From a virus: DNA of 64,000 bases. Of the stretch, positions 4,142 through 25,216 are shown piece after piece. Position 1 is the stretch's first letter; each line of letters starts with the position of its first letter. Where the stretch lies: the UHGV virus genome UHGV-0375936. One strand, given 5' to 3'. Below the pieces are notes generated by a model. The model did no database searches. It had not been told where the DNA came from and saw only the letters and a program-made list of their open reading frames with translations. The position numbers were made by a program, and so were the translations under genes.

Positions 4142-4232
4142 GTTGAATTCTCCTGTTAGTCTACATTAAAATAGTCGTAAACGTTAAAAAGAAAGACCCT
4201 CCTGTACCACGAAAGGGTACAGGAGGGGGGTG

Positions 4233-4691
4233 TCAGTACAAACACGATGTCAAGTATTGGTTATACGAATCGAGCAGTGTCTGACGGTCGGAACGGTAAT
4301 TCCACAACAAATTATTGAGTTTACGCGATAAGTCACGGCTAATCTCCTGGGGCGTTAAAGAGCTTTCATCAAGAGATAAGCGTTCAGGTACAACATGTAA
4401 CTTCGGTAACTCATAACGTTCACAAAGTGGAGCCAGCATTGGTGGGCTCCAGCCACGTTTAACGGCTTGTTGGTTTAAATTTCGGGTGTAGACATAAACG
4501 TAGTAAGCATAGGTGTTGACATCCGCAACATACTCACGCATTGCATTATTGTCAATTTTCCAATTCACCATTATTGGCGGTGTAGGAGGAAGTTCCAGTG
4601 GCCTATAAGCTGGACGTTTAACTTCGTCGCCGTAGCTATTACTCACCAACCCCACGAACACCATCATGATGAATAACAGCATTTTCATCAA
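4233..4691 (-). CDS. secreted Pro-rich protein
   Basis: N-terminal signal-peptide-like hydrophobic stretch MMKMLLFIMMVFVGLVSNSYG, Pro-rich region after it. Confidence 0.5.
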   Translation of the reverse strand: MMKMLLFIMMVFVGLVSNSYGDEVKRPAYRPLELPPTPPIMVNWKIDNNAMREYVADVNTYAYYVYVYTRNLNQQAVKRGWSPPMLAPLCERYELPKLHVVPERLSLDESSLTPQEISRDLSRKLNNLLWNYRSDRQTLLDSYNQYLTSCLY

Positions 4692-6597: not shown

Positions 6598-7221
6598 ATG
6601 GCTACGCGTTTACCACTCCAGGTACCAGTCAACACCACGGGACTGTTCAAAGTAAAAACACCATTTACTTTGGCCGAGACGGTCATTTATACGGTAGAAG
6701 CGTCACGTACCTTCCCAGATTTAGTACGTCAGAATATTGACGTTTATAACTCGTATTACCAGCCAGTAGGGCTAGGACGTGAAGAATATTTAGCAGATGC
6801 GAATGTTAGTGCGTCGATTTTAACATTTAAATCTCGGGACGGTCAAGTTGTATACATACCTGACACCTACCTGGAATCATACCCAGGTTTATCCGGGATC
6901 ACGTATCAACGAAATGTGTTAGTAGTAGATTTGGCACTGGTACCGGATTACGTGAAAGTGTCGTCTATAACAAAAGACGTTTCAGATATTCTCACGCATA
7001 CACTAGGGATTGAGCCGAAAGTTGAAATTACAACGCTCGAGTATGAGGGGAAGGTAACGGAGGAACAGCACTTGCAGATGGAAGCGGCACGAAAAAATAA
7101 AATTCGTGAATCTATTCCATTAGGTGAGAAAGTTGCTGCGTTGACAGAAGAGAACAAAAAATTAAAAGAGTTAAACAACCAAATGTTAGAGATTCTTAAA
7201 GCTAACGGGTTAGTTAACTAA
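6598..7221 (+). CDS. hypothetical protein with C-terminal coiled coil
   Basis: 207-aa ORF 3 nt after previous stop; C-terminus KVAALTEENKKLKELNNQMLEILKANG. Confidence 0.6.
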   Translation: MATRLPLQVPVNTTGLFKVKTPFTLAETVIYTVEASRTFPDLVRQNIDVYNSYYQPVGLGREEYLADANVSASILTFKSRDGQVVYIPDTYLESYPGLSGITYQRNVLVVDLALVPDYVKVSSITKDVSDILTHTLGIEPKVEITTLEYEGKVTEEQHLQMEAARKNKIRESIPLGEKVAALTEENKKLKELNNQMLEILKANGLVN

Positions 7222-7228
7222 AAAGATT

Positions 7229-7262
7229 ACCCTACTCCTTCGGGAGTAGGGTAGCTTTTATT
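7229..7262. terminator. bidirectional Rho-independent terminator
   Basis: Perfect hairpin ACCCTACTCC-TTCG-GGAGTAGGGT between convergent genes, T-run after it. Confidence 0.6.
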
Positions 7263-7814
7263 TTAAATGTCGACTTCTAGTTTACGGTAATCGATGACGC
7301 CTTGAGCAATCATAGCAGCAACATCGTTCCAGGTACGAAAAATGAAGTAAACTGTGTCTCCGTTTAAAAAGATGTTAGATTCTTTATCCGGGAAATCATC
7401 TTCACTGAGGTAGTAGTAAGGTTTGTCGAAAGGGAAGTCGCGCTCATCAGAGGAACCAAGTACCGCATAACGATTGCCACAATCAAACAGAATCTTCCAA
7501 CCAGACAATTCACTATTAGCGTCAATACGATCGTCGATTTCAACGGTAATAGGAGAATGATCAAGAAAGCTGATTGTAACCTCTCCGTTATGCTGTCGTT
7601 TAAATCGACGAATATCTGTAGGCACAATTTCAGATGCTGCTATAAGGGAATAAAGTTGTGTTACGGTGATCTTTTTGTAAACACTATCGCCATCCCACAA
7701 ACGATCAAATAAGAAATTAGCCAGGAAATTTATATCCTTTAAACGTGAACGGAAAACAGAACCACGACGAATACCGTAAGCCAGATGAGTTAAATATTCA
7801 GACGATGGAAACAT
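7263..7814 (-). CDS. hypothetical protein
   Basis: 183-aa ORF; conserved RBS context (AGGAGTATTAAAATG). Confidence 0.6.
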   Translation of the reverse strand: MFPSSEYLTHLAYGIRRGSVFRSRLKDINFLANFLFDRLWDGDSVYKKITVTQLYSLIAASEIVPTDIRRFKRQHNGEVTISFLDHSPITVEIDDRIDANSELSGWKILFDCGNRYAVLGSSDERDFPFDKPYYYLSEDDFPDKESNIFLNGDTVYFIFRTWNDVAAMIAQGVIDYRKLEVDI

Positions 7815-7835
7815 TTTAATACTCCTAAGGTGGGA

Positions 7836-7868
7836 AAAAGAATTAACCCTACTCCCGGAGGAGTAGGG
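7836..7868 (-). terminator. Rho-independent terminator
   Basis: Hairpin CCCTACTCC-CGGA-GGAGTAGGG with A-run on plus strand (U-run on minus transcript). Confidence 0.55.
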
Positions 7869-7876
7869 GATTTAAA

Positions 7877-8812
7877 TTACTTTTTGGTTTGACCCAGGTT
7901 TTCAAGAACCAGCTCACGAATATACTTCTGAGTTCGTTTCTTCGGCGGTAGAGCCATAAGAGTGTCAACGATTCCCTGGCCGCCGATAACCTTGCTGACG
8001 AGTTGTTGAACTTGGAAGAGTTCTGCTTCTTCGTCACTGATCTCATTAGCTTGGTCTTTCTGACACAACGCTTCTACCAGGTCAGCTACGGATATTTCAT
8101 TTTCGTCACCGGGGAAATCCAGGTTTAACGATTCGAAAACATCACGCTTAACGAGTACAGATTTCAGATCATCGTAGTCTTCACAAACGGCGACTTCTGT
8201 GCCAGGTACCGTTTCTTCTTCGTCATGATCTCCTTCCTCAGGGTTATGGTATTTTACCAACGGTGAGTTGAACAACGGTCCTTTTTTCATCAGCACAAAA
8301 CCTACATGTGACCAACTGCTCAGGATGAAATAGACAGCAGACCCACTTAATCCGATATTACCTTGACGTAGGTCAAACGCAATTTCTTGACGGCGATAAA
8401 TCTGCCCTAAATCAAAGAAAGCTTCGTCACGAGCTGCAACAACATCATACTGATTCGCACCTTGTTCTACCACAACGAACCAATTACCGTGATCCGTTGT
8501 ATGTTGGTAAGGCACGAAAGATGGGTCATCTCTCATGATGGGATTAATGGCGATGGTCGAATACAGCATTCCCATAGAGAAGTTGAACGTATTCCTTTCT
8601 TGAAACGCAGTGAAATTATCAATTGGAAGGATTAAGGAGGTACGTTCGATAGAGAAAACCGTTTCCTGTGTAATCGACGTTGGATTTCTGCCCAGGAAAT
8701 AACCACGTAAAAAGTCGGCGGTCGCACCCACATTGGTTTGCATCGTCTTGCTGCTATGGTAACGACGTAGCGTGTTAGCCAGTTCGTGAATTACTTCAGA
8801 TGGAAAAGTCAT
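7877..8812 (-). CDS. hypothetical protein
   Basis: 311-aa ORF with RBS. Confidence 0.6.
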   Translation of the reverse strand: MTFPSEVIHELANTLRRYHSSKTMQTNVGATADFLRGYFLGRNPTSITQETVFSIERTSLILPIDNFTAFQERNTFNFSMGMLYSTIAINPIMRDDPSFVPYQHTTDHGNWFVVVEQGANQYDVVAARDEAFFDLGQIYRRQEIAFDLRQGNIGLSGSAVYFILSSWSHVGFVLMKKGPLFNSPLVKYHNPEEGDHDEEETVPGTEVAVCEDYDDLKSVLVKRDVFESLNLDFPGDENEISVADLVEALCQKDQANEISDEEAELFQVQQLVSKVIGGQGIVDTLMALPPKKRTQKYIRELVLENLGQTKK

Positions 8813-8866
8813 TTTAATAGTCCTCTTTTAGGTTTGTTCAAATCAACTAAGGGTTATGTAAAAAAG

Positions 8867-9346
8867 TTAAAATAATGGCAAGTTACGCCATTGTCCTACC
8901 GAGTAAAAAGCTTTTGGATGTTTACGGATATACGCTTTCGCTTCTTCTGGCAACCAACGGTCACCCGCCAGTTTTTGTTGTGCAACAATTACCGCCATCA
9001 ACAAATACGGGTTTTTCGCACCGGGGAACTTTGCATTGGTTTCTAGCGCAATATCCAACATTGACGACCAGCCCAGTAATTTATGTTGCGCCGGTAAACG
9101 TTCTTCAATATACATCAGCCATTTCATGATTTGTTTAGGCTTATACGGACAGGTATAATTCGCCCAACACACCATGACGAACTTAATAGCCTTCGCAATC
9201 ACCCATACAGGGACAGTCACGAAAAGGCAGAAAATGGCCAACTGCGAGGCGGGCGCTTCGACAAAAGTAACCGCTACAAGAACCATACACAGTTCAAGTA
9301 CCACAAACCAAAAACGCGTTGGATAACGCCAAATGAATTTTATCAT
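8867..9346 (-). CDS. membrane protein
   Basis: Two long hydrophobic segments in N-terminal half. Confidence 0.5.
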   Translation of the reverse strand: MIKFIWRYPTRFWFVVLELCMVLVAVTFVEAPASQLAIFCLFVTVPVWVIAKAIKFVMVCWANYTCPYKPKQIMKWLMYIEERLPAQHKLLGWSSMLDIALETNAKFPGAKNPYLLMAVIVAQQKLAGDRWLPEEAKAYIRKHPKAFYSVGQWRNLPLF

Positions 9347-9412
9347 AACTCTGTTCCTTTAGGGAATGAAAATAAAAGTACCCCTTACTCCGTATAGGGT
9401 AAGGGGTAGAAG

Positions 9413-9922
9413 TTAGAAGAACGGCTGATTTGGAATGACAGCGTACTCTAAAATGAACATATGTTCCGGGGCGTCTTCTTTACGCCAGACTTTGTGTGTC
9501 GACACAAGTTTTTCCAGAATCGTTAAGAAACTACGTTGGCAGTATGTGTTTTCACCAAGCAGTAGATTTTGAAGTTCTACAGTAGCGTCCATATACGCCT
9601 GTTTAAAGACTAAACTACGGTTATACTGCCCGGTAAAATTCCAAAGCAAGACCTTCCCTTCTTCGGTTTCTTTTACCGTTGGCCGTAAACCACAAATCCA
9701 CAGTAAGGCAAGGTTGACGTTCCAGTCAAACTCTAAACCTTCTTCTTCGTCAACACCGAATGCTGTGGGTAAAGCATCGTAAAATTCGTGTTTCTCTGCG
9801 AATTCTTCATCCGACTTAATCTCGTCTTCGATACTGCTTCGGACAATACTGTAAACGTCTTTCGCGGTCAATTGTGCGGCTTTTGTAATGCCTTTATACC
9901 AATCGGTTACTACGATGCTCAA
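9413..9922 (-). CDS. hypothetical protein
   Basis: 169-aa ORF, 4-nt overlap with upstream gene. Confidence 0.55.
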   Translation of the reverse strand: MSIVVTDWYKGITKAAQLTAKDVYSIVRSSIEDEIKSDEEFAEKHEFYDALPTAFGVDEEEGLEFDWNVNLALLWICGLRPTVKETEEGKVLLWNFTGQYNRSLVFKQAYMDATVELQNLLLGENTYCQRSFLTILEKLVSTHKVWRKEDAPEHMFILEYAVIPNQPFF

Positions 9923-10644
9923 AGGGTAACTCCTCTATTGATTGGAAAACTCGTGTTTATCGTATCCCAAATTCTACTAACTTCCGCCAGTTGAATCTGA
10001 CGTGGTGTTTTCTTCGCAAACGCAAGCTGACGTGGGGCCGAGCCCACAACAACAGGCACATCGATTTTCGCGCTATAGAACGAGGCGTCTTTCATAAAGC
10101 CTGCCATTTCTCGTTGTGCTGCTCGAGATTTGCTTTTGATTCGCGTGTGAGCGCCACTTTCACCCCAGTGGTAAGCTAACGCAACTTCAGCCATGGTGGG
10201 CTTGCGTTTGAGTCGTTTGGTTAACCCCTTCTCAAGATGTTTAACATACGCGGTAGCCAGCAAAACAGCATTACGCGGATTATACAAATCGGCGTTCTGA
10301 CTAAGACCTAATTCTTTTCCATAAAGCTTTAGCAGATTACGCTTGGTACTTGGAAGCATTTGTACCAGGCTGTGTGCTCGTGAGCTTTTGTTGTAAGCCT
10401 TGGGATCAAAACGCGATTCACGATAAATCAGCGTAATCATCAGCTTGGGATCAACGCCCTGCTTTCGTGAGATTTCCACAATTAACGGGCTGACTTTTTC
10501 GAACCGATGTTGGATTTGTGCAAACTCTCGCTGATGCTTAGAATGTGGCGTTGACGTTGACGCCTGTGCGTTAAACGCGAAAAGTGTTACCAGTAAAAGA
10601 AAGAAGATACGAAACATTTTGTTTCTCCAGTTGGATTTATACAT
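9919..10644 (-). CDS. lytic transglycosylase (SLT domain) with signal peptide
   Basis: Signal-like MFRIFFLLLVTLFAFNAQAS; SLT catalytic region LIYRESRFDPKAY...SLVQMLPST. Confidence 0.75.
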   Translation of the reverse strand: MYKSNWRNKMFRIFFLLLVTLFAFNAQASTSTPHSKHQREFAQIQHRFEKVSPLIVEISRKQGVDPKLMITLIYRESRFDPKAYNKSSRAHSLVQMLPSTKRNLLKLYGKELGLSQNADLYNPRNAVLLATAYVKHLEKGLTKRLKRKPTMAEVALAYHWGESGAHTRIKSKSRAAQREMAGFMKDASFYSAKIDVPVVVGSAPRQLAFAKKTPRQIQLAEVSRIWDTINTSFPINRGVTL

Positions 10645-10717
10645 TTCCGTATTCCGTAAGACGAAATGACGGCGCGGACAGCTAATACTCCTTTGTTGTG
10701 TGCCCTAATGATAATAT

Positions 10718-11278
10718 CTATTTAAAAGAGTTTGGAATTAATGACTCTGCTTCTTGGTACAGCTTATCAGGTAAATATAACGTGTAGCGCTGCCTCCTCG
10801 GTTCAAGTTTTTTGTAAAGCCACAAAAAGATTTCTTGTCTTTCCCAGGAATCTAACCACCCATTTGCCATCCCCAGTGGAGGGATAGCAACGCTGGTATC
10901 CAGATCCTCAGCACAGTCTGCTAATGCGGTAATGCCCGCAGTAACATAAGAAACCTGGGATTTTAAACGCCAATGTGTTTTCGTGGGGAGCAAGATACAC
11001 TTTTCGTCAGAGTAAACGTAAACGCTTCCAATCTTAATTTCGTCTTCACGACACCGCTTACGATAATCCTGATAAAGGTTGGGGTAGCGTTCACGACACG
11101 CGAGTGCAATACCGCGACCCATCGCTCCTACGCAGTTAATGGTAACGACTTTATAGTCTTCGGGCGCATTAAAAAGATCGTTACCAATTTCAGATTCTTT
11201 ACGTACCGTTAACATAACGAAACGCCCGGAGTTGATGTGTAGTATTAAAACGTGTACCGCCGATTGATAGCTCGACAA
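10718..11278 (-). CDS. macro-domain-like protein (start codon uncertain: TTG 11278 or ATG 11215)
   Basis: VVTINCVGAMGRGIALA and VAIPPLGMANG segments resemble macro/ADP-ribose-binding fold motifs; weak RBS. Confidence 0.4.
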   Translation of the reverse strand: MSSYQSAVHVLILHINSGRFVMLTVRKESEIGNDLFNAPEDYKVVTINCVGAMGRGIALACRERYPNLYQDYRKRCREDEIKIGSVYVYSDEKCILLPTKTHWRLKSQVSYVTAGITALADCAEDLDTSVAIPPLGMANGWLDSWERQEIFLWLYKKLEPRRQRYTLYLPDKLYQEAESLIPNSFK

Positions 11279-11302
11279 GTATAGCGATATATGTTTTACC
11301 CA

Positions 11303-11671
11303 TTATCGATTTTTCGTAATCCATTGCTTGACCGCTGCTTCTAAACCTTCGTGTTGTAAGCCCAGGCGCTGCATAGTCAGTGACAAGTTAAGCGTGTGGA
11401 CGACCTGCTCACGGAACTGATGATCGTTCATACGGTCCCAGACCTTCTCTACTGAAATATTGTGTTTCCAGAGCAAATAAGCTTCACGACACGATGCGCG
11501 ACGAACTAAACTGGGTTTAACAAAAGGCAACTCGATTTCAGGCAAGTAACCTAAAAGCTTAACTAACGGCGTTACCTGCGTCTTACCGAAGTCACCACAT
11601 TGATAACAAATTTGCAGAATATCAATTTCATTCAACGGTATGCCGTAAATTGATGGGTTCTCTGTGAACAT
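11303..11671 (-). CDS. hypothetical protein
   Basis: 122-aa ORF, AGGAGAA RBS. Confidence 0.5.
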   Translation of the reverse strand: MFTENPSIYGIPLNEIDILQICYQCGDFGKTQVTPLVKLLGYLPEIELPFVKPSLVRRASCREAYLLWKHNISVEKVWDRMNDHQFREQVVHTLNLSLTMQRLGLQHEGLEAAVKQWITKNR

Positions 11672-11873
11672 TCATATTCTCCTCAGGCTCGAAATGTGAT
11701 TCGGGTGGCAACGTCCCTAAAGCCCCTTGGATACAAGCCGTCAGTGAAGGTTTGCCGAAACAGACCTTACCTATCGTCCCCACATTGGGATGCTGTAAGA
11801 ACGCTTTCGCACGTTCGTATTCTTTCCAACAAATACTCGTATCCAAACCACCCACTCCGTACGATTTTAACAT
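11628..11873 (-). CDS. hypothetical protein
   Basis: 81-aa ORF overlapping the start of the next gene. Confidence 0.4.
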   Translation of the reverse strand: MLKSYGVGGLDTSICWKEYERAKAFLQHPNVGTIGKVCFGKPSLTACIQGALGTLPPESHFEPEENMNVHREPINLRHTVE

Positions 11874-11939
11874 AATTAGCTCTCCTGACGTAAATTTCTC
11901 ACACTCATAGTGAGGTACGCCAAGAGAGCTTTATTGTTT

Positions 11940-12383
11940 TTAGAATGTTTTGCTAAAATCGACCCACTCACGATCGTGTGAGTAAACCGCTTGATAGCCG
12001 CGTCGGATGAAATACTCTTTTGCTTCTTTACATTTCGCATACATGCCAGTAACAATCTCGCCGAAAACTTCATCAGCTGCAATTGCTTTGAAAATCTCTT
12101 TCATTACACCCCGTTGACGATAGTCTGGGAGCACGTATACCGAACGTATCTTAAGTGAACCGTTACGATTCCGATAACTACAGTATCCTACCGCGACATC
12201 ATCCTGATACACCAGAACTATGCAGTTACCTTCGATCAGCTGTCGCGCATTTAACTTCGGCACCGACATTTTGATTTTCAGTAACGTGGCCTGGTGGTCT
12301 AAGTAACGGTAGTGTAGTTTGAGTAAATCGGCAGCTTGTCGCTCGCCAACTTTAGAAGATGCGTTCAACAAATAAATTTCCAT
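11940..12383 (-). CDS. GNAT-family acetyltransferase-like protein
   Basis: Translation matches the minus strand only; YRQRGVMKEIF resembles the GNAT acetyl-CoA-binding motif; ATG at 12381-12383. Confidence 0.5.
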   Translation of the reverse strand: MEIYLLNASSKVGERQAADLLKLHYRYLDHQATLLKIKMSVPKLNARQLIEGNCIVLVYQDDVAVGYCSYRNRNGSLKIRSVYVLPDYRQRGVMKEIFKAIAADEVFGEIVTGMYAKCKEAKEYFIRRGYQAVYSHDREWVDFSKTF

Positions 12384-12414
12384 TTGCAAACCTTAGAGAC
12401 GCAAAAAAGTAAAA

Positions 12415-12543
12415 TTAAAACCAACGCGCGATGACGAAAGCCGCAGCGGCTAATATGGCTGTGGTGATTATCAATCCACCCCATGAAAGTTCCGCGTCGT
12501 ATAGTGCGGATATCGCTACATTCGTAGCGTTTATCGTGGTCAT
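12415..12543 (-). CDS. small hydrophobic peptide (42 aa)
   Basis: ATG with AGGAG RBS 6 nt upstream; MTTINATNVAISALYDAELSWGGLIITTAILAAAAFVIARWF; below ORF-track cutoff. Confidence 0.35.
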   Translation of the reverse strand: MTTINATNVAISALYDAELSWGGLIITTAILAAAAFVIARWF

Positions 12544-12600
12544 TTTCTGCTCCTGTCAATACCCTCACACCGGAGGGTATCTTCTGGACTATTTGGGTGG

Positions 12601-12699
12601 TTAATCTTCGAACGCCCAACGGTGACGTTTAATCAGCCAGTTTAAACCTTTACCAATTAACCACAACGAGCCAAGTGTTAACAGAACCCCTACAACCAT
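12601..12699 (-). CDS. small hydrophobic peptide (32 aa)
   Basis: ATG with AGGAGAGGG RBS; MVVGVLLTLGSLWLIGKGLNWLIKRHRWAFED. Confidence 0.35.
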   Translation of the reverse strand: MVVGVLLTLGSLWLIGKGLNWLIKRHRWAFED

Positions 12700-12709
12700 A
12701 TTCCCTCTC

Positions 12710-12895
12710 CTAATTCCGCCATTCGCATTCGCGTTGACGCCAAATTGAACCCCACGATAGTTTAATCAGATAAGATGAAACTACCCATAAAATCATCACC
12801 ACACAAAACATGACATAAAGAACCGCTAGAATGGACATGAAGCCAAACCCTGCCGCATCCACAATACGACGGAACCAATCAGTTTGCATAAACAA
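12710..12895 (-). CDS. small membrane protein
   Basis: 61-aa ORF with long hydrophobic core; overlaps the stop of the ATPase gene. Confidence 0.4.
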   Translation of the reverse strand: MFMQTDWFRRIVDAAGFGFMSILAVLYVMFCVVMILWVVSSYLIKLSWGSIWRQRECEWRN

Positions 12896-15383
12896 TTTTT
12901 ACTCCTTCGTTATACACCGCAGGCAATGTCACCCCTTCCGGTTCGATGACACAGTACGATGCTTCATTAAGTTTAGAATGAACCTCGGCTTCGTGGGAGA
13001 CTACCAACAGTTGGGAAAATTCTCCCGAGTTTGCTAACGTTTTAATAAAACCGACCAGGTTGTTACGGTGCTCCTCATCCATGCCTTCCGAAGGCTCATC
13101 CAAAAGCAACGGAAACTGATGCAACTTCAGCGCTTTGTACGCAGTCAGCCTGAACATCAGATTAAATATCGCACGCTGCGCCTTAGACCCTTTACGCACG
13201 TCAGGAACAGGCTCAGGATGCGTTTTTAGCTGGACAGGAAAAGTATAATCCAAATCGCCGTCAGTGAGGTCACAAGGCATAACGCGCATGGGGTACGTCC
13301 AGACCTGTTCGATATAACGCGTCATTAACTCTGTGATTCTAACGATAGCGTTGTAAAAATACTTTCTAAGTACACCCTTTTCTGGCGAGAAGGCTTGAAT
13401 CATCAGTTTGTTATTGAACTGCTGGGCTTGTAAGTCAGCAAGTTCGCGTTCCAAACTGTTGAGCTGATTCAATTCATTTTCCATCTGACGATAACGTTCG
13501 CGTGCGGTTGTAAAAGCATCCAGCTTCCCTTCTCGAGCACGTAAGAGTTCCTCGACGACCGTATTTGTCAACGTAACCTTAACATCACTCTCTAACCGTT
13601 CGAATAACGCACTGAAATCATCTACAGCACGTTTAACATTCACCAGATAGGTAAGTGTCGTGTTAGCCAGTTCGTGCTCTCTACGACGCATTGAGAGCAT
13701 CTCTGTGGCTTTACCTAATCGTGACTGTTGAAAAGCAATTTTCTGTTGTAAAGCACCATCGACGTTACCAACGGCCGCTACGGCATCCTGCCATTCTTTT
13801 TCCGCCTTCACTAACCGTTGTCGGGTTTCATGGTACTCAATAGCAGAGTACAACTCACTGTCAAACGCTGCGCATAGACTACCGAACTGTTCACGTGATT
13901 CTGTGAAAACGTTACGTTCTTGCAAACGCTTAAAGAACATGCTCAATACCGGGTCCTTTGAATACGTCAGCACAATCTCACGAACCTGCCGCATATAAGT
14001 TACATCAGATTCTAACTCAACACGATCGCGTAATAGGGCCTCTAACTGCGTTTGCAGTTCCGTGCGCTGCTGCTGTTGTCCACGAATCGAAGACTCAAGT
14101 TCAGGTAAAGAACGTGTAACACCAGGCCGAAACTTAAACCGGCACTGCGGACAATCCACTTCCGCTGTTTCTAAGTAGTGATTACGTTCGTGATTTAAAT
14201 TCTGTAAAACGTTCTCCACTCGCTGGAGTCTATCCCGCAACCCTGCGGTTTTTTGATCCATCACCAGAAGCCGTTCTTCCAAAACATTGAGTTTTTCAGT
14301 TGAATGAATTGCGTCCAGTGTTGTTCCTAACCGTTGCCCCCAAACACGCGCATCGGTAGCCGCACGAAGTTGGTCTAAATTGACGTTGTCGTTAAATAGA
14401 CCCGGAAAGAGATGCTCGGTGTCCCATTTGGTAAGTAACTCACGTAAACGCGCCAATGTATTCTTGAGACCTTCGTGATTCCGCATCAGGTAGTCTTGTC
14501 GTGTTGACTCATCCATCAATAACGACAAGTCTTTATTCAACATCGATACCTCTGTTTCAGTAGACACGACAGCTTCGCGGGCCGTCGCTTCGTTTTGTCG
14601 CGCGACCAGTATCTGTTCATCGGTAGGCAGGCCACCACGATGTTGTAATATTGCGTCGATGGTTGGGCCCAAGCTGTTTAATAACGCTTGGATTGTTTCG
14701 ATGGTGACGGCACGATTTAATCCTGGCAACTGTTCGATTTCTCGGTTCAATTCACGTAAATCCGATTCCAAACCTTTTAATCTCGTCGCTAACTGCTGCC
14801 GTTCTTCCTCGTTCTCAATAACACGCGTCCGTAATTCGGCGATCTTGCGGCTGGTGATTTCAATACCCCCATTTAAGGCAGTAAGGTTTTTACGTAAACG
14901 TTGATAAAACCCTAACGCGTAAGTGAGGTCAGAGGTACTTAAACGGTAAAACCATTTGCGGCGTAATTCGGTTCCCGCATCGGTTAACAACACCTCACCA
15001 TTTAATAGTTCTTTAATCTCTTTCGTAATACCCGTGATTTCTTCAACACGGGAGTTGTAGACTTTCGCATTACCTTGCTCGACGATCTTTGTCCCCGTGG
15101 TCAGGTTCTCAATATCGCAAACCAAAGAGTTGCCTTTACGGGCAACTTTGAATCGATAGCGTTGATCGCCAACTAAACAGTAGTTCGTGTAAGAACCGCC
15201 GTCCCTGAATTCAGTTTTAGCTGGTGCTAAGGGTAAGAACACAGACAGTAGACTGGTTTTCCCGCAGCCGTTCCCACCCAGGATAATTGTTGTCGGAGAC
15301 TGGATAGTGAAATCGAAGGTTTCAATTTCATGTAACCCCATCCCCGTAAAACCTTTGAGTATAATGCGTTCAACTTTTAGCAT
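12879..15383 (-). CDS. SbcC/Rad50/SMC-like ABC-type ATPase with long coiled coil
   Basis: Walker A GGNGCGKTSLL; coiled-coil middle; C-terminal LLLDEPSEGMD...LLVVSHE (Walker B/D-loop/H-loop); start probably ATG 15383 after GGAGG. Confidence 0.7.
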   Translation of the reverse strand: MLKVERIILKGFTGMGLHEIETFDFTIQSPTTIILGGNGCGKTSLLSVFLPLAPAKTEFRDGGSYTNYCLVGDQRYRFKVARKGNSLVCDIENLTTGTKIVEQGNAKVYNSRVEEITGITKEIKELLNGEVLLTDAGTELRRKWFYRLSTSDLTYALGFYQRLRKNLTALNGGIEITSRKIAELRTRVIENEEERQQLATRLKGLESDLRELNREIEQLPGLNRAVTIETIQALLNSLGPTIDAILQHRGGLPTDEQILVARQNEATAREAVVSTETEVSMLNKDLSLLMDESTRQDYLMRNHEGLKNTLARLRELLTKWDTEHLFPGLFNDNVNLDQLRAATDARVWGQRLGTTLDAIHSTEKLNVLEERLLVMDQKTAGLRDRLQRVENVLQNLNHERNHYLETAEVDCPQCRFKFRPGVTRSLPELESSIRGQQQQRTELQTQLEALLRDRVELESDVTYMRQVREIVLTYSKDPVLSMFFKRLQERNVFTESREQFGSLCAAFDSELYSAIEYHETRQRLVKAEKEWQDAVAAVGNVDGALQQKIAFQQSRLGKATEMLSMRRREHELANTTLTYLVNVKRAVDDFSALFERLESDVKVTLTNTVVEELLRAREGKLDAFTTARERYRQMENELNQLNSLERELADLQAQQFNNKLMIQAFSPEKGVLRKYFYNAIVRITELMTRYIEQVWTYPMRVMPCDLTDGDLDYTFPVQLKTHPEPVPDVRKGSKAQRAIFNLMFRLTAYKALKLHQFPLLLDEPSEGMDEEHRNNLVGFIKTLANSGEFSQLLVVSHEAEVHSKLNEASYCVIEPEGVTLPAVYNEGVKIVYAN

Positions 15384-15461
15384 ACCCACCTCCATAAAGA
15401 CGGAGTGTGGTGTAAAAAGAAAAAAATAAAGAAAGGGAGAACCCGAAGGTTCTCCCTAACG

Positions 15462-16070
15462 TTATTTGGTATACAGCTGATAACCCATTGAAGCCCAATA
15501 ATCAATGTTCTTCGCGTTTTCTACCCAAACCTGTCCCGCCTTTGTGGCTAAGACTTCCATTGTCAATGTACAGATCAGATTTGTTACCTGGATACAATTT
15601 CCAGGTGTAACATCATCCAGATAAACCGGATATAAAAACGGCGATTTAATGGATTGGTACGGGTAAGAATAGTGGCTACCGACTTTCCACCCTTCTTCTA
15701 CAGGGCAGAGATTATAAGTGCGTGTTTCAGGAACTGCGTTTTCAGAGATCCAGTTAACAACATCGGCTTTAATTCGATCGTGGTCGATATAGTAGAACAC
15801 AACACGCTGTGGGATACTTGTGGTACCAGCCGGGTCTAAAGCCTCCAACGCCTTAAAAGGCGACGTTAACAATGTTGTACTGTTCTCAAGCGCGTAAACC
15901 AACTTTTCGTAAGCAGTCGGTGTTTTGCGTTTAAAATATTCCCGTAAGCGAGGGTAAGCCAGGAAGCCCTCTACTTCTTCTTCCATTAAGTCAATGAATA
16001 AAGGCGTATGCGAAAACCGCTCTGCATTTTGCATCGCTTCAAGAAAACGAACTAATGTAATTTCGTTCAT
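15462..16070 (-). CDS. hypothetical protein
   Basis: 202-aa ORF. Confidence 0.55.
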   Translation of the reverse strand: MNEITLVRFLEAMQNAERFSHTPLFIDLMEEEVEGFLAYPRLREYFKRKTPTAYEKLVYALENSTTLLTSPFKALEALDPAGTTSIPQRVVFYYIDHDRIKADVVNWISENAVPETRTYNLCPVEEGWKVGSHYSYPYQSIKSPFLYPVYLDDVTPGNCIQVTNLICTLTMEVLATKAGQVWVENAKNIDYWASMGYQLYTK

Positions 16071-16087
16071 CTGGTCTTTCCTTTTAG

Positions 16088-16118
16088 ATCAAAAAAAGAA
16101 GCCCCGAGTAAACGGGGC
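16088..16118 (-). terminator. Rho-independent terminator
   Basis: GCCCCG-AGTAAA-CGGGGC hairpin with adjacent A-run on plus strand. Confidence 0.5.
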
Positions 16119-16126
16119 CGGGCTAA

Positions 16127-16603
16127 TTACAGCCCTAAGTGCGTGAGTGATAAAATAGGTTGTGTTTCACCTTTAATCGTCGCGTAGGAACGATACATTT
16201 CTGCGTTACTTGAAAAAACTTCGTTAGCAACGATACATTCACCCGTCTCTAAAGAAAGGAGATAAATGTAGTCGCTCCATACGCTTTGTACCAATACCCA
16301 CTCAAGTGCGGTATCATTTTCGCGTGTTGTTCGCAGGTGATGAAAGTAAGGACGGATTGCATCAACCGCCGCATTAAAACGACGGTGATAGATTCGGGTT
16401 AAATCAAAGGTCCAGATTGTTTCCAGGTCGACTGGATGTAATGTGCGCACCGTTTCGATAATCGTCGACTGATCGTTAAGGCGCGAGGCTTCGGCGATAC
16501 GTAGCAGTTTCCAGGCTACCGTTAAGTTGTGGCGAATTTGTTCAGGTTTAGCCGACAGGTCATGATGAAATTGCGCAGCTTGGTAAACGTTAGATAATTG
16601 CAT
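16127..16603 (-). CDS. hypothetical protein
   Basis: 158-aa ORF; conserved initiation context CCTAAAGGAGTATTAAAATG. Confidence 0.55.
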   Translation of the reverse strand: MQLSNVYQAAQFHHDLSAKPEQIRHNLTVAWKLLRIAEASRLNDQSTIIETVRTLHPVDLETIWTFDLTRIYHRRFNAAVDAIRPYFHHLRTTRENDTALEWVLVQSVWSDYIYLLSLETGECIVANEVFSSNAEMYRSYATIKGETQPILSLTHLGL

Positions 16604-16631
16604 TTTAATACTCCTTTAGGTAAATATGTCG

Positions 16632-16658
16632 TAAAAAGGACCCCGGACGTACCGGGGC
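16632..16658 (-). terminator. Rho-independent terminator
   Basis: CCCCGG...CCGGGG hairpin with A-run on plus strand. Confidence 0.5.
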
Positions 16659-16669
16659 CAAGACTACAC

Positions 16670-17059
16670 TCAAAGATCTAATTCGATAGCACCAGCCATC
16701 TTGCCCCGTTCTTCTATAACGATCAGATAACGGTCGCGAGATTTGCTTTTAGCGAGAGTTAAGACAACGGTAGGGTCGCACGTTTTCGTGGTGATAGGAA
16801 GAACCTCTCTTGCGACGGAATCGAGCAGAAAGTAATAACCTGCGGGACACATTGTGCCGCCATCAGCTTTTACCAGAATATAGCGCCCGTCTGCGCCGAC
16901 TTCTTGGCAGATTGTTTCACCGACTTCGCAAACTTCAAACCCCGGAGGATTGTACTGGTAATCGGTATTGTTGTTTGGGGTTAGCAGTAAATCGTTAACT
17001 TGAGTAGATGCTGCTACACTCAGGGAGAAGAAGAATGCTAAAACGCAGACGAGACGCAT
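16670..17059 (-). CDS. small secreted protein
   Basis: N-terminal signal-like MRLVCVLAFFFSLSVAAS. Confidence 0.55.
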   Translation of the reverse strand: MRLVCVLAFFFSLSVAASTQVNDLLLTPNNNTDYQYNPPGFEVCEVGETICQEVGADGRYILVKADGGTMCPAGYYFLLDSVAREVLPITTKTCDPTVVLTLAKSKSRDRYLIVIEERGKMAGAIELDL

Positions 17060-17069
17060 GAGTTACTCC

Positions 17070-17480
17070 TTAAATTTTAAGTTTATCCATAGCTACAACG
17101 ATAGGTTTTTCCGAAGTGTCTAATATCCCTACCATTGGCACACCATCTACGACTTCGAAGAATGGTTTGTTATTACCAGAGCATAGACGTTTGTCGTTGT
17201 ATTCGAGACGCTGAGCCTTCCACGTTTCGAGGTTGAGTACGGACATTGGGCTGTCGTAGCACCAGGCACCACCTTGCTCAACGATGAATACGTATCTGCT
17301 ACCTTTGTATTTAAACAGGCTCTTTGCCTGGCAGTACAACCCGTCTATTTCCGTACAATAGAAATCATCGGTGCTATTGACGTACTTAATATTGTCTGGC
17401 AACTGTATTGTCTTTGCTGTAGCGTTGACAGAGAACAGAACAGCCATTGCAATGAGAAGAGTATTAATGATAGTTTTCAT
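17070..17480 (-). CDS. small secreted protein
   Basis: N-terminal signal-like MKTIINTLLIAMAVLFSVNATA. Confidence 0.55.
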   Translation of the reverse strand: MKTIINTLLIAMAVLFSVNATAKTIQLPDNIKYVNSTDDFYCTEIDGLYCQAKSLFKYKGSRYVFIVEQGGAWCYDSPMSVLNLETWKAQRLEYNDKRLCSGNNKPFFEVVDGVPMVGILDTSEKPIVVAMDKLKI

Positions 17481-17491
17481 GATAAAAGTCC

Positions 17492-17977
17492 TTAGTATTT
17501 AGATTGTTCTACGTACTTCTTAACCAGGTAAGCGAATTCGGCAACACCGATATCACCGAACCAAATCAGGTAACCGGGGTCGATGTTGTAGTAATAACCG
17601 ACGAGTTTCTTGGTGTGTGGGTTGTATAGCGTTACGATGTATTCCCAACCACAAGCGTTAGCTTTACAACCGCCACTTTCAATCCAGATTTTGTTGTTGA
17701 TGTTTACCGGATACATGTTACCGCCAGGGCCATCCATGTAACCTTTAGAGCCGAACATACCATCCAGTCCCACAGGGTCTAGTGTTTTATCAACAACGGC
17801 TTTAAACGACTTATCGGTATCGTACAAGTCGTTGATGTTTGGGCACGCATTTGGCTGGCCTTCCCAAGCGTTTCCATCACAGGTAAGCAATTCGTCTACG
17901 GAGGCCGCATCTACAGTTGGCGTGGCACCGATAAACAAGAAAACCAGAAAGAACATCAGTGTATGTAAACGTTTCAT
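17492..17977 (-). CDS. small secreted protein
   Basis: N-terminal signal-like MKRLHTLMFFLVFLFIGATPTVDAA. Confidence 0.55.
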   Translation of the reverse strand: MKRLHTLMFFLVFLFIGATPTVDAASVDELLTCDGNAWEGQPNACPNINDLYDTDKSFKAVVDKTLDPVGLDGMFGSKGYMDGPGGNMYPVNINNKIWIESGGCKANACGWEYIVTLYNPHTKKLVGYYYNIDPGYLIWFGDIGVAEFAYLVKKYVEQSKY

Positions 17978-17995
17978 TGTAACTACTCCTTTAGA

Positions 17996-18388
17996 TTATT
18001 CGGCAGGACGATTTAAGGTAACGCGTCCGATTAATTCAGCGTTGTGAAAGAAGTCCACAGCGGTATAGTTACCAACTGATAGCGGATGGATACTAACTGA
18101 CATTACTTTTGGTTGTTCGCAGGCGATATCCGTCAGGCGTTGGTAGACTTGTGCACGAGTGTCAGCAATGAGTAATCCCGTACACGTTTCACCACGCACT
18201 AAACGATAAACTTGCAGTTTACCGAAACTGCGCATTAACGTAGGCGTCTCATCCGGGTTGATAATCGGTGACTCAGGAGCCGGTTCGTAATAGCGGACAT
18301 CCGAATCACCGAAAGCATAAGTGCCAGTAATTCCGACCGCACAGAAAACAATGATAGTATAAAGTATAGTTCTGATATTCATTTTCAC
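17996..18388 (-). CDS. small secreted protein
   Basis: N-terminal signal-like MKMNIRTILYTIIVFCAVGITGTYA. Confidence 0.55.
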   Translation of the reverse strand: MKMNIRTILYTIIVFCAVGITGTYAFGDSDVRYYEPAPESPIINPDETPTLMRSFGKLQVYRLVRGETCTGLLIADTRAQVYQRLTDIACEQPKVMSVSIHPLSVGNYTAVDFFHNAELIGRVTLNRPAE

Positions 18389-18410
18389 GCACTCTAAAAA
18401 AGATTAATAC

Positions 18411-18872
18411 TTATTTGTTAGGACGGGTGTGTCCACAGTTCTGGAAGAAAGTTTCAGATAAACGATCGCCTTCTACGGTAAAGTTAGCGGCATCGTTACC
18501 ATTGATACTCACACTGAAAGTTTTGGCATTACCGATAGCATTAACGAAAGCAACCCAAGCGTGTTCTGCCTTGTCGCTACCGTCCACGGTAGGGATGTTA
18601 TAGGTTTTGCCGTTTACGACAATATCCATCATGTTATCTTCAGCGTTAGTTGCACCTACGGGTTCCCCGTAATACCAAACCATGCGACCGTAAAATTTGC
18701 GATTCACAGTTTCTGTGTCACAGTTGATAGACAGTCCGTTTCCGGCGGTGTCTTCGATTTCGTAAACTGCCTGGCCAGGGTTTTGTATTTGTTCCCAACT
18801 ATTGATTGCAGCGTATGCGCTATTGAGGCCGAAAGTTAAAATGGTTATTAAGAATGTGATAAAGGTTTTCAT
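18411..18872 (-). CDS. small secreted protein
   Basis: N-terminal signal-like MKTFITFLITILTFGLNSAYA. Confidence 0.55.
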   Translation of the reverse strand: MKTFITFLITILTFGLNSAYAAINSWEQIQNPGQAVYEIEDTAGNGLSINCDTETVNRKFYGRMVWYYGEPVGATNAEDNMMDIVVNGKTYNIPTVDGSDKAEHAWVAFVNAIGNAKTFSVSINGNDAANFTVEGDRLSETFFQNCGHTRPNK

Positions 18873-18918
18873 TGAAATGCTCCTTCGAGTTATGGGGAAG
18901 CTCCCACAAATTATGAAA

Positions 18919-19290
18919 TTAAATAACTGTGTTGGGTAATGCTTTAATCTGTGTATAACTATCTCCGATACCTCTTATCATTTCCAGACGCTCTTCTGTA
19001 GAAAGGCTTTGGTTAATGTCTTTGTCAAGATTGAACAGTGTCAAGAGTTTTGCAATTGCAACCGTCAAGTTGTCGGACAGCTCGTTGTTTTTACGCCATT
19101 CTTCGTTACGGAAAATAGAGATAAGGTCTTTCGCCTGGCCTTCAGCGTGCGGTTTGGCTAACTGCGCGTCACGCTGTTCGATAAGGTATGCTTCGTTAGT
19201 AAGTAAACGTTTCAGGTTTTCTGGGTTAGTGGCAGCGCGAGTAACGATCATTAATACAACAAACGGGTCTTTAAATAATTCGTTTTTCAT
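18919..19290 (-). CDS. hypothetical protein
   Basis: 123-aa ORF directly downstream of a conserved promoter-like element. Confidence 0.55.
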   Translation of the reverse strand: MKNELFKDPFVVLMIVTRAATNPENLKRLLTNEAYLIEQRDAQLAKPHAEGQAKDLISIFRNEEWRKNNELSDNLTVAIAKLLTLFNLDKDINQSLSTEERLEMIRGIGDSYTQIKALPNTVI

Positions 19291-19295
19291 CTTTA

Positions 19296-19373
19296 GTTCT
19301 CCTAAAATGGTTTTCGTTAAGTGAGAGCTTTTGTACTCTCACCTAAGTAATATATATCTGAAATTATTTTTAA
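19296..19373 (-). promoter_or_regulatory. conserved AT-rich box plus 5' hairpin element (copy 1)
   Basis: Near-identical to 55955..56027; minus strand reads TTTCAGATATATATTACTTAGG then hairpin GTGAGAG-TACAAAAGC-CTCTCAC then RBS and ATG. Confidence 0.45.
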
Positions 19374-19383
19374 TATTAACGAA

Positions 19384-19416
19384 CAAAAAAATAAAAGGTG
19401 GGGGTAAACCCCCCAC
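19384..19416 (-). terminator. Rho-independent terminator
   Basis: GGTGGGGG-TAAA-CCCCCACC hairpin with A-run on plus strand. Confidence 0.55.
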
Positions 19417-19421
19417 CGATG

Positions 19422-20000
19422 TTATACATCGAACCGATACTGCCGGGAGTTAATGAGGAATTCGGTATTCAGCTCAATCCATTCGAGTAAATCACCCAAC
19501 GGTAATCGGTTTGGGTTTTCTAACTCAATAGACGCTACCGGATAAGAGTTTACTAATTCCGTAATTGTATCAATACCCTCTTGCGTTCCATCGTCTTCTA
19601 AGGTGATTGTAAACGGCATATCGGTACGATCCGCATTAGGATTGTACAAACTGACTTTTGTTGCTTGGACAAACGCAGACAGGTCGTCACGTATAATGCG
19701 TGTATCAGGCGATAGAACTACCCAGAGATGCTGCCCTGGCTGGAGTTTACGTTTTGCGTAGTTTAAGAAAGGACTTGCCATCAAGTTTTCCAAACCACAA
19801 CAGATGCTACGTAACTGTATTCCGCGCGGATCTCGGTAATCCACATCGAAAATTCCCACAGGTTCATTCGCTGCCTGTTTTATCAGAAAGGCCAATACCG
19901 TGTCCGCTCTTTCTGGTAAGGAAAGCTCTATTCCCTCAAGCTCCCCATCGACGAGATTTTCTAACCAAACGTCTTTTCGCATTTCTATTAATCGGTACAC
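19422..20000 (-). CDS. hypothetical protein
   Basis: 192-aa ORF. Confidence 0.55.
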   Translation of the reverse strand: MYRLIEMRKDVWLENLVDGELEGIELSLPERADTVLAFLIKQAANEPVGIFDVDYRDPRGIQLRSICCGLENLMASPFLNYAKRKLQPGQHLWVVLSPDTRIIRDDLSAFVQATKVSLYNPNADRTDMPFTITLEDDGTQEGIDTITELVNSYPVASIELENPNRLPLGDLLEWIELNTEFLINSRQYRFDV

Positions 20001-20012
20001 GGTTCCACCTCA

Positions 20013-20786
20013 CTAATAATTAAGTTTTACATCGGCAATAAACAGCAATTGTTTACCATGTTGCTGCACTTCTTTCCAACCTAGTTTCATAGCAGCGTCA
20101 ACAACATCTAACATGCTGTAACGGGACATCAAAGATTCTGATTTTGTTCCTGACATTAAGTAAAGTGGCTCATTAGGGCTACGGTCACGTGCGTCAGGAA
20201 GTTCCCGAGAGACTGCTGATCCTTCGGGTACGGTAACAACATGAATCACGGTAAATGGTCTCTTGTGCGTCAGATAGATACGAAACCCAACGTGTTCAGA
20301 TTCATGAAAGACTTTCTTCACAACCACATCTTTTAGTGTCGTCTGAACATCAGCCCCAGGTAATATCGTGGTTTCACGTGAAACGAAACAACGGCTATTT
20401 TCAATCGTGGAGAAATAATTACGTATCGGCAAACTAGCGTTATGATCGCGCAGTTTTTTGCTCAGTAGATCGAAGTTCAGTTCTTTAACTTTCTCTAGCC
20501 ATTCTTTGGCTTGTTGAATGTAATAACTACCGACAGTGCGATAAGTTAATACCTTACCTGTGCTTACTTTCCAAAGTTTAACGCTTAGTGAATTTGGCTT
20601 ATAGCGACGATACTCACCCCGCGTATAGTTGATGCGCTCGTAACGCTCTACATCGTCAACGGGTGCAGATTCGATCGATTGTAATTGCAGCGTACGATCT
20701 AATCTATCGGCGAATAGTAGTGATGTTAGCGGACCTTCGATCAAATACGGTTCGGTTTTAAAGATATCATCTAGATGGATTTTCAT
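20013..20786 (-). CDS. hypothetical protein, tandem paralog family member
   Basis: C-terminus LGWKEVQQHGKQLLFIADV shared with three neighbours; N-terminal LDDIF. Confidence 0.6.
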   Translation of the reverse strand: MKIHLDDIFKTEPYLIEGPLTSLLFADRLDRTLQLQSIESAPVDDVERYERINYTRGEYRRYKPNSLSVKLWKVSTGKVLTYRTVGSYYIQQAKEWLEKVKELNFDLLSKKLRDHNASLPIRNYFSTIENSRCFVSRETTILPGADVQTTLKDVVVKKVFHESEHVGFRIYLTHKRPFTVIHVVTVPEGSAVSRELPDARDRSPNEPLYLMSGTKSESLMSRYSMLDVVDAAMKLGWKEVQQHGKQLLFIADVKLNY

Positions 20787-20853
20787 TTCTATTTCCTTCT
20801 TAACAAAAGCCGCGACTAAAGCGCGGCAGTTAGAGAAAGTCTATTTTTACTTA

Positions 20854-22005: not shown

Positions 22006-22036
22006 TTTTACTCTCCTTTAGGGGTTTTTTCGTTAC

Positions 22037-22591: not shown

Positions 22592-22617
22592 GATATATTC
22601 TCCTTTTAGGTTTTTAC

Positions 22618-23352: not shown

Positions 23353-23558
23353 GATTTACTCGCTAATCTCAATAAAGGGGAGTCTATTATTATGGATTGT
23401 AAAAGAGGTATAAGGAAGTCACTACGTTCCTCTGGGAAGAGTATGTCGGTATACTACGTATACCTCCGCTATTTATATCCGTATACATAATGCCCCCTAC
23501 CCCCTACCGGTATCCCGAGTAGCAGAATAAAGGGACATAATGTAATTTTTAGTACCTG

Positions 23559-25156: not shown

Positions 25157-25216
25157 CGAAAAAAAAAACGTGCTACTCCTACCCTCTAAGAGGGTAGGAG
25201 GTTACTTTATTTTTTT
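25157..25216. terminator. bidirectional Rho-independent terminator
   Basis: Hairpin TCCTACCCT-CTAAG-AGGGTAGGA flanked by A-run and T-run between convergent genes. Confidence 0.6.

Follow-up and report, generated by a model that had tools for sequence, protein, structure and literature searches.

The window, by which we mean the whole 64,000-nucleotide stretch of viral DNA analysed here (UHGV virus genome UHGV-0375936), contains a run of minus-strand genes that spans 7263..23352. Within this run three small ORFs, referred to below as A, B and C, sit between a gene for a large SbcC/Rad50/SMC-like ATPase and a gene for a GNAT acetyltransferase. The features of the locus, listed in the direction of the genes, are as follows:

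15434..15457, minus strand: hairpin resembling a strong terminator, with a 10-bp stem and a T-run, immediately 5' of the ATPase gene
12879..15383, minus strand: SbcC/Rad50/SMC-like ATPase, 834 aa (phrog_77, E=1e-91; Pfam SMC_N)
12902..12907, minus strand: Shine-Dalgarno sequence of ORF A, AAGGAG, 6 nt 5' of the TTG and inside the last codons of the SbcC-like gene
12710..12895, minus strand: ORF A, 61 aa from the TTG at 12895, or 59 aa from the ATG at 12889
12707..12711, minus strand: Shine-Dalgarno sequence of ORF B, AGGAG, 7 nt 5' of the ATG and overlapping the TAG stop of ORF A
12601..12699, minus strand: ORF B, 32 aa, ATG start
12559..12580, minus strand: intergenic RNA hairpin between B and C, ATACCCTC-CGGTGT-GAGGGTAT, with a perfect 8-bp stem
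12550..12554, minus strand: Shine-Dalgarno sequence of ORF C, AGGAG, 6 nt 5' of the ATG
12415..12543, minus strand: ORF C, 42 aa, ATG start
11940..12383, minus strand: GNAT acetyltransferase, which closes the small-gene cassette on its downstream side in all relatives

The ATPase gene probably begins at the ATG at 15383 (MLKVER...). Downstream of it, the start of ORF A overlaps the ATPase stop by 17 nt, ORF B starts 10 nt past the stop of ORF A, a spacer of 57 nt that contains the hairpin separates B from C, and the GNAT start at 12383 lies 31 nt past ORF C. The first-pass annotation had described three ORFs directly downstream of the ATPase, and the coordinates, lengths and AGGAG-type ribosome-binding sites that it gave are all correct. 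The 17-nt overlap, together with a Shine-Dalgarno sequence that lies inside the ATPase gene, suggests that ORF A is translationally coupled to the ATPase.

A near-identity DNA search against deposited phages and E. coli genomes returned no match to the window, and relatives were drawn from protein searches, IMG/VR and metagenome look-ups. Its proteins place the window in a jumbo phage that has Erwinia phage Asesino and Salmonella phage SPN3US among its relatives: the ATPase shares 71% identity with the Asesino (Erskinevirus) protein and 58% with its SPN3US (Seoulvirus) counterpart. ATPase identity is higher in lineages L012 and L018 (99%) and in L013 and L014 (87%), and L029-L034 make up a further closely related lineage, in which peptide C is 83% identical.

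The hairpin between B and C has a predicted dG of about -16 to -21 kcal/mol and is kept in three lineages with differing stems and loops; its loops are GUAA in L013 and L029, and a T-run follows only in L013/L014. It is possible that this hairpin acts as a weak terminator or as a transcript-stabilising element between an SbcC-A-B unit and a C-GNAT unit. Hairpins separate many genes in this region. The strong hairpin at 15434..15457 would mark the upstream limit of the SbcC-A-B unit. No promoter could be recognised directly upstream of the SbcC gene; the TATATTAC motif, which is present elsewhere, is absent from that position.

Coding status of the three ORFs

Across its six frames the window contains 426 ORFs of 30-100 aa, 20 of which encode a 19-residue hydrophobic stretch (Kyte-Doolittle mean of at least 1.9 over 19 residues). 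Just two of these 20, namely ORF A and ORF C, also have a strong Shine-Dalgarno sequence (AGGAG or GGAGG at -18..-4), and the A/B/C cluster exceeds chance expectation. All three ORFs are intact and in the same order between the ATPase and GNAT genes in L012, L018, L013, L014 and L029-L034, and overall we find intact ORFs in conserved gene order in 10 close relatives and in more than 12 distant ones.

Patterns of substitution point the same way. When A, B and C were pooled, pN/pS came to 0.20 (p=8e-12), 0.42 (p=2e-8) and 0.27 (p=5e-19) in three lineage pairs, with ranges for the individual ORFs of 0.29-0.47 (A), 0.13-0.51 (B) and 0.15-0.35 (C). In a six-frame control the proposed frame had the lowest pN/pS and contained no stops; the other frames gave values near or above 1, except for the expected antisense mirror frame. 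Nei-Gojobori estimates of dN/dS against L013 were 0.32 for A, 0.38 for B and 0.16 for C, next to 0.05 for the neighbouring GNAT gene.

The Shine-Dalgarno sequences of A, B and C are likewise conserved among relatives. Since the ATG at 12889 reads ACG in L013/L014 while the TTG at 12895 and its Shine-Dalgarno sequence persist there, the TTG is probably the real start of ORF A. In the same two lineages the stop of ORF A and the start of ORF B overlap as ATGA. ORF B itself shows signs of relaxed or diversifying selection: it differs by six amino acids in L012, where the proteins of the flanking genes are 95-99% identical, its nucleotide identity to L012 is 87.5% as against 94-96% for the flanks, and in L034 it carries an in-frame deletion of 8 codons.

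Could A, B and C nonetheless be untranslated, the product of the region being either an 84-aa ORF at 12365..12619 or a plus-strand 57-aa ORF at 12431..12604 that lies antisense to C? The three ORFs are, after all, very short, and in four lineages no stop interrupts the antisense frame opposite C, which shows pN/pS below 1. However, the 84-aa ORF, which the first-pass annotation had itself named as the competing product, is broken in relatives: only 67 aa are left of it in L012 and 32 aa in L013/L014. It is not conserved, and we reject it as the real product. The antisense signal, for its part, is weaker than that of the sense frame (pN/pS of 0.21-0.63 versus 0.15-0.35 for C), as is usual for a mirror of the sense frame, and we attribute it to this mirror effect; moreover, the antisense ORF opposes the orientation of all neighbouring genes. 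Even between genera too divergent for DNA alignment, the sense ORFs still have their starts and stops, their Shine-Dalgarno sequences and their protein motifs in place. We therefore regard the untranslated scenario as extremely unlikely, and the earlier proposal of genuine small hydrophobic peptide genes is borne out by ORFs that stay intact in relatives and by purifying selection in the proposed frames.

Predicted properties and relatives of the peptides

ORF A has an amphipathic N-terminus (residues 3-16), a hydrophobic core of ~29 residues (~16-44; nt 12764..12850) and a basic C-tail that ends in RECEWRN. AlphaFold2 models it as one continuous helix over residues 2-60, with pLDDT of 94-97 over residues 21-40, and the prediction of a single-pass membrane protein is a clear one. 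ORF C combines a conserved polar N-terminus (MTxxNxxNA...Y..W) with a predicted TM helix at residues 21-39 (nt 12427..12483), which extends to within three residues of the C-terminus (..ARWF). Acidic residues lie on the N side of this helix and one Arg lies at its end, a charge layout that, under the positive-inside rule, suggests an N-out/C-in topology, with a tail-anchored arrangement as the alternative. ORF B consists of a hydrophobic stretch (residues 1-16), conserved Lys/Arg and an amphipathic, basic, Trp-rich tail ending in WAFED, with a hydrophobic moment of 0.5-0.65 over residues 14-27. The first reading of the locus had assigned one TM helix to each of the three peptides. For A and C, where single helices are clear, this assignment stands; for B it is marginal, since some 16 hydrophobic residues are short for a bilayer span, and B may instead form a short anchor followed by an interfacial helix.

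Two further ideas about ORF C were considered and rejected. A double-glycine leader (..AELSWGG) is contradicted by the SPN3US, SPAsTU and pEa_SNUABM_29 homologues, from which the GG is missing, and also misfits the consensus spacing. A relationship to the Pf3 coat protein finds no local alignment, the layout alone being similar.

A, B and C have no meaningful match in Pfam (even at E<=10), in NCBIfam or among PDB chains. ORF A matches phrog_16515 (E=1.2e-4, residues 2-59) and ORF B matches phrog_13448 (E=6.6e-14, residues 1-31), two families to which PHROG assigns no function; ORF C has no PHROG match. By these profile matches A and B are new members of already catalogued PHROGs, and all three peptides belong to uncharacterised families.

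With a custom HMM the relatives of ORF A are recovered at E=6e-34 and in conserved synteny; they include SPN3US gp187, Asesino gp208 and phiEaH2 AFQ96656. These proteins resemble ORF A in their position overlapping the SbcC stop, their length class, a Y-x-x-F-C motif in the helix and a C-E-W-R tail, but their identity to it is only ~30%, and the window protein differs in starting at a TTG. The exact 59-aa form of ORF A occurs on 188 public contigs, some of them labelled E. coli or Shigella, and falls among 19 near-identical clusters. A literature search for expression or proteomic data on SPN3US gp187-190 returned only the remark on a TM domain in PMC5105663.

For ORF B, tblastn matched 14 phage records, all at the same locus and all confirmed by HMM. 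phiEaH2 AFQ96657, SPAsTU AWN09150 and Machina gp199 share with it the second place in the cassette and a GxLWLIGK..W.I.K...WAF-type pattern, although among the PHROG 13448 peptides the window version, at 32 aa, is the shortest. A search of 1.84 billion protein representatives added two real matches to ORF B and no informative relatives. ORF C is represented by two clusters among 5.8 billion proteins, one (P0001) at 93% identity and the other (P0002), which an E. coli assembly lists as a hypothetical protein, at 83%. Its homologue in SPN3US is gp189 (43 aa; HMM E=1.6e-22), with which it shares the MTxxNxxNA N-terminus, several conserved residues (Y, W and IT) and W(L)F at the end of a C-terminal helix. 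Simple tblastn failed to recover this relationship, which is thus visible only with a profile. As far as these searches reach, the A, B and C families are confined to the SPN3US-like clade.

A modular cassette between the SbcC and GNAT genes

We scanned the gap between the ATPase and GNAT genes in 30 relatives with family HMMs and found it to be filled by five families of small membrane proteins: A, B, F3, C and D. F3 is a 2-TM protein of ~70-86 aa, and D is a peptide of 35-39 aa that ends in ALTQGWF. Paralogy among the families, notably between C and D, which both end in W(L)F, was considered and rejected, hhalign giving a probability of at most 1.7% between any two of the five. The composition of the cassette varies by lineage:

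Window lineage: A-B-C
Asesino and phiEaH2 (Erskinevirus): A-B-F3-D
SPN3US and SPAsTU: A-B-F3-C-D
pEa_SNUABM_29: A-B-C-D
Machinavirus: a divergent A', then B-F3-D
Derbicusvirus: non-homologous TM peptides at the same spot

ORF B is the most widespread of the families. The cassette genes of SPN3US overlap one another in series, so that the gp189 gene is chained by overlaps to those of F3 and D, whereas the window lacks both of the latter, no homologue of D or F3 being found anywhere in its 64 kb. The overlap between the ATPase stop and the start of a small gene is kept in SPN3US, phiEaH2, pEa_SNUABM_29, SPAsTU, Machina and Phobos. Some members have escaped annotation: the homologue of B is unannotated in the SPN3US and Asesino records, and that of D is unannotated in SPN3US. 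Judged by gene order and profile matches, A, B and C are modules of a clade-specific, fast-evolving cassette between the SbcC-like ATPase and the GNAT gene.

Lysis, nuclease partnership or accessory function

What might such a cassette do? The first-pass annotation had suggested holin/antiholin-like proteins or modulators of membrane defence systems. To consider the first of these, two further genes have to be introduced:

9919..10644, minus strand: putative endolysin, an SLT protein of 241 aa, homologue of SPN3US gp198, with a signal peptide-like start (MFRIFFLLLVTLFAFNAQA)
8867..9346: protein of 159 aa that has two N-terminal TM segments and is encoded two genes away from the SLT gene

Imagine that at least one of A, B and C were a holin, pinholin or antiholin, which would depolarise the membrane and thereby activate the secreted SLT endolysin. 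In its gross features ORF A would fit, being small and having one TM helix and a charged (basic) C-tail; ORF C has a clear TM helix and ORF B a marginal one, and the combination of a TM domain and a charged tail is not specific to holins. A/B/C and the SLT gene also share one orientation, and the signal-peptide-like start of the SLT protein means that it could need only a depolarising peptide. Several observations argue against this scenario. We find no holin-family match for A, B or C in Pfam, NCBIfam or the lysis-category PHROGs. Nor do the three genes cluster with endolysin or spanin genes: the SLT gene lies ~1.8-2 kb beyond ORF C (~2-3.5 kb when its 2-TM neighbour is included), and five genes (GNAT, an 81-aa, a 122-aa and a 35-aa protein, and a Macro-domain protein) and several hairpins intervene. 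The 2-TM protein at 8867..9346, by contrast, lies two genes from the SLT gene and appears to be a better and more conventional holin candidate than A, B or C. Lastly, A/B/C are coupled to a replication/recombination gene, the SbcC-like ATPase.

phiKZ, the only phiKZ-like jumbo phage with dissected lysis genes, offers a point of comparison. It keeps its holin gp142, the regulator gp143, the spanins and the endolysin gp144 in one cassette, with gp142 about two genes from gp144 (PMC12894885). Like A and C, the class III holin gp142 is a single-TM protein; it comes from a related jumbo phage and acts with an SLT-type endolysin (PMC12894885). Yet it has a large cytoplasmic regulatory domain and a cytoplasmic partner, gp143, and is encoded inside the endolysin/spanin cassette, whereas A, B and C are much smaller proteins whose genes lie well away from the SLT gene and are linked to SbcC instead. 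The holin suggestion thus finds little to sustain it, and A, B and C are probably not the holin/antiholin pair. Since any depolarising peptide could in principle suffice to activate a secreted endolysin, we leave the scenario a small probability, and consider it quite unlikely.

The main rival to our preferred reading takes the position of the cassette at face value: ORF A, perhaps together with B, would serve the SbcC(D) nuclease as a membrane partner or tether specific to this clade and would hold part of the nuclease at the inner membrane. Coupled translation would supply A in proportion to SbcC, and SbcC-A-B is set off as a unit by terminator-like hairpins on either side. Every SPN3US-like genus has a small TM gene that overlaps the SbcC stop or directly adjoins it, including those genera where the peptides at this position are not homologous to A (A' in Machinavirus, gp182 in Derbicusvirus). 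PhiPA3, too, encodes two small proteins with N-terminal TM segments right after SbcC. In SPN3US, SbcC (gp186) is essential (Thomas et al. 2016, PMC5105663); the phiKZ counterpart of the ATPase, gp165, is an essential core gene. The idea of an SbcC partner has in fact been raised for SPN3US gp187, for which TMHMM predicts a TM domain (PMC5105663).

A similar arrangement exists in T4, where gp46/47 are membrane-associated, possibly via gp47.1 (cited in PMC5105663). T4 47.1, which encodes a predicted membrane protein of 46 aa, overlaps the start of gene 47 in the operon 47.1-47-46.2-46.1-46. It thus resembles ORF A in being a gene for a tiny hydrophobic protein that overlaps an SbcC/SbcD-type nuclease gene in one operon, but it precedes the SbcD gene, where ORF A follows the SbcC gene, it encodes two short hydrophobic segments, and its role as an anchor is itself a proposal. 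BLASTP of ORF A against T4 gp47.1 indicated no homology, the match being confined to 17 hydrophobic residues (E=0.044 in a single comparison).

Two observations argue against nuclease tethering. First, the association does not extend across jumbo phages. We surveyed 78 SbcC loci from IMG/VR, which come from diverse jumbo phages and collapse to 59 SbcC lineages at 60% identity, for a small TM ORF that starts within -40..+120 nt of the SbcC stop. Such an ORF is present in only 7 of the 59 lineages; three of these belong to the clade considered here and three are doubtful and possibly spurious, which leaves a convincing case in 4. A small TM gene overlapping SbcC or SbcD is therefore not a general trait of SbcC-encoding jumbo phages, and a family-wide link fails beyond the SPN3US-like clade, as it also does in phiKZ, RAY, Noxifer, RSF1 and phiKT1019, which are without such a gene. 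Second, these phages are reported to replicate their DNA in a protein-shelled nucleus, which a membrane-anchored partner would presumably be unable to reach. On balance we consider a membrane partnership with SbcC(D) unlikely.

More speculatively, A, B, F3, C and D might all be subunits of one membrane micro-complex tied to the SbcC nuclease. Such a complex could hold a pool of the nuclease at the inner membrane or at an early-infection vesicle, outside the phage nucleus, where it might serve in the destruction of host DNA or in genome hand-over, the A-B-C of the window representing a minimal version. Were this true, it would tie DNA-end processing to a membrane compartment in a way that is new for phiKZ-like jumbo phages, which form a nucleus, but we rate it as very unlikely.

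In our preferred reading, A, B and C are genuine translated inner-membrane proteins that belong to a modular cassette and are probably non-essential accessory factors rather than a holin/antiholin pair; we put the probability of this reading as a whole at roughly 55%. A, B and C would be expressed from the polycistronic mRNA of the ATPase, with C following a conserved hairpin and using a strong Shine-Dalgarno sequence of its own. Because the genes ride on a replication/recombination gene and not on lysis genes, production alongside SbcC in the replication phase is probable, and the peptides would then be inserted in the cytoplasmic membrane: A as a long single helix, C in an N-out/C-in or tail-anchored arrangement, and B as a short anchor with an interfacial amphipathic tail. 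There they may bind or perturb components of the host envelope and might, for instance, exclude superinfecting phages, inhibit a membrane protein or defence sensor of the host, or interfere with cell division. The modulation of membrane defence that was suggested for the locus at the outset is one possible form of such an accessory function.

Small membrane proteins that bind larger ones are known from bacteria (AcrZ, MgrB, MgtS) and from phages (HK97 gp15, T4 Imm, SPO1 gp56). Like these proteins, A, B and C are of roughly 30-80 aa, have a single helix, and would be accessory and lineage-restricted, but no sequence relationship is known, and the analogy is one of kind only. Most small genes of phiKZ tolerate transposon insertions (PMC12676376). 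Keeping in mind that a specific partnership with SbcC could instead lie behind the tight overlap with the SbcC stop throughout the clade, we favour accessory membrane proteins as the description of A, B and C.

These results are at the level of annotation and establish no new mechanism. They do, however, turn three doubtful micro-ORFs into well-supported genes and place them in a cassette that is fixed at one locus across a clade of enterobacterial jumbo phages and some of whose members are missing from the reference annotations of SPN3US and Asesino. With a genetic system available for SPN3US, whose SbcC is essential, the cassette offers a tractable setting in which to study the function of small phage membrane proteins, and it could show whether the idea of a membrane-anchored SbcCD in T4 has a counterpart in phiKZ-like jumbo phages.

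Divergence of peptide B and its homologues

Peptide B is one of three small hydrophobic peptides (A, B and C) encoded on the minus strand between the SbcC-like ATPase gene and the GNAT acetyltransferase gene. In the related L012 (6701..6796) its nucleotide identity to the window sequence is 87.5%, compared to 94-96% for the flanking genes, whose protein identity is 95-99%, and we count six amino-acid changes, one of which removes a conserved Trp. In a second relative, L034 (about 2866..2952), eight codons (GKGLNWLI) are deleted in frame. Taken together, these changes and the deletion suggest, at the level of sequence comparison, that peptide B is under relaxed or diversifying selection, or else dispensable.

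Homologues of B exist in SPN3US and Asesino, as does, in SPN3US, a 35-aa homologue of D, a further small membrane protein family of the cassette that is absent from the window; the reference records lack these annotations. The B and D homologues of phiEaH2, SPAsTU and Machina do carry annotations. In the distantly related PhiPA3, gp191 and gp192 likewise sit right behind SbcC, are small and each have an N-terminal TM helix; their sequences are unrelated to A, B or C.

About 171588..171692 and 171985..172092, SPN3US (JN641803.1): unannotated B and D homologues
173590..173700, Asesino (KX397364.2): unannotated B homologue
4025..4523, PhiPA3 locus L024: gp191 and gp192 (70 and 97 aa), first two genes after SbcC

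ATPase start, hairpins and a promoter-like motif

The mechanically called start of the ATPase ORF, ATG 15395 (MEVGMLKVER), is probably wrong: homologues in relatives begin MLKVER, and GGAGG lies 6 nt upstream of ATG 15383, from which the ATPase comprises 834 aa.

12559..12580, minus strand: intergenic hairpin between B and C (dG about -16 to -21 kcal/mol)
15434..15457, 16100..16119, 16639..16659 and other gaps in 7200..23400, between same-strand genes: GC-rich hairpins followed by T-runs
19347, 42499, 56002 and 60367, sense relative to downstream genes: intergenic TATATTAC

The hairpin between B and C is present in three lineages with differing stems and loops, the loop being a GUAA tetraloop in L013 and L029, and is followed by a T-run in L013/L014 only. 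It may separate the SbcC-A-B from the C-GNAT transcripts; alternatively, it may make the upstream mRNA more stable. A similar hairpin, ACCCTC...GAGGGT, occurs as a single copy at 25181..25195. Across 7200..23400, hairpin and T-run pairs sit between many successive same-strand genes, and transcription in this stretch appears to be punctuated between one gene and the next.

The motif TATATTAC, which we take to be the phiKZ early-promoter core, occurs four times in the window against 2.3 expected, a number not significant by itself. All four copies are intergenic, upstream of genes and in sense orientation; none lies immediately upstream of the SbcC gene.

Downstream genes and candidate lysis functions

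10718..12383, minus strand: GNAT acetyltransferase, overlapping 81-aa and 122-aa ORFs and Macro-domain protein, just downstream of A-B-C
11199..11303, minus strand: tiny conserved ORF of about 34 aa (MGKTYIAILVELSIGGTRFNTTHQLRAFRYVNGT), between the 122-aa and Macro-domain genes
9919..10644, minus strand: SLT transglycosylase, homologue of SPN3US gp198 'putative endolysin'
8867..9346, minus strand: 159-aa protein with two N-terminal TM segments, two genes downstream of the SLT gene

The genes of 10718..12383 resemble a neighbourhood for host takeover or counter-defence. The Macro domain binds or processes ADP-ribose, and the homologue of the 122-aa ORF is annotated as 'EF-Tu-like' in Machina and pSal-SNUABM-04. 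The tiny ORF, whose product is not hydrophobic, is well conserved in L029-L034, whose gene calls include it at 35 aa. Further downstream, the SLT transglycosylase begins with a signal-peptide-like sequence, MFRIFFLLLVTLFAFNAQA. Judging from sequence features, this enzyme and the 159-aa two-TM protein look like the real lysis module of the phage, with an endolysin that would be secreted or of SAR type.
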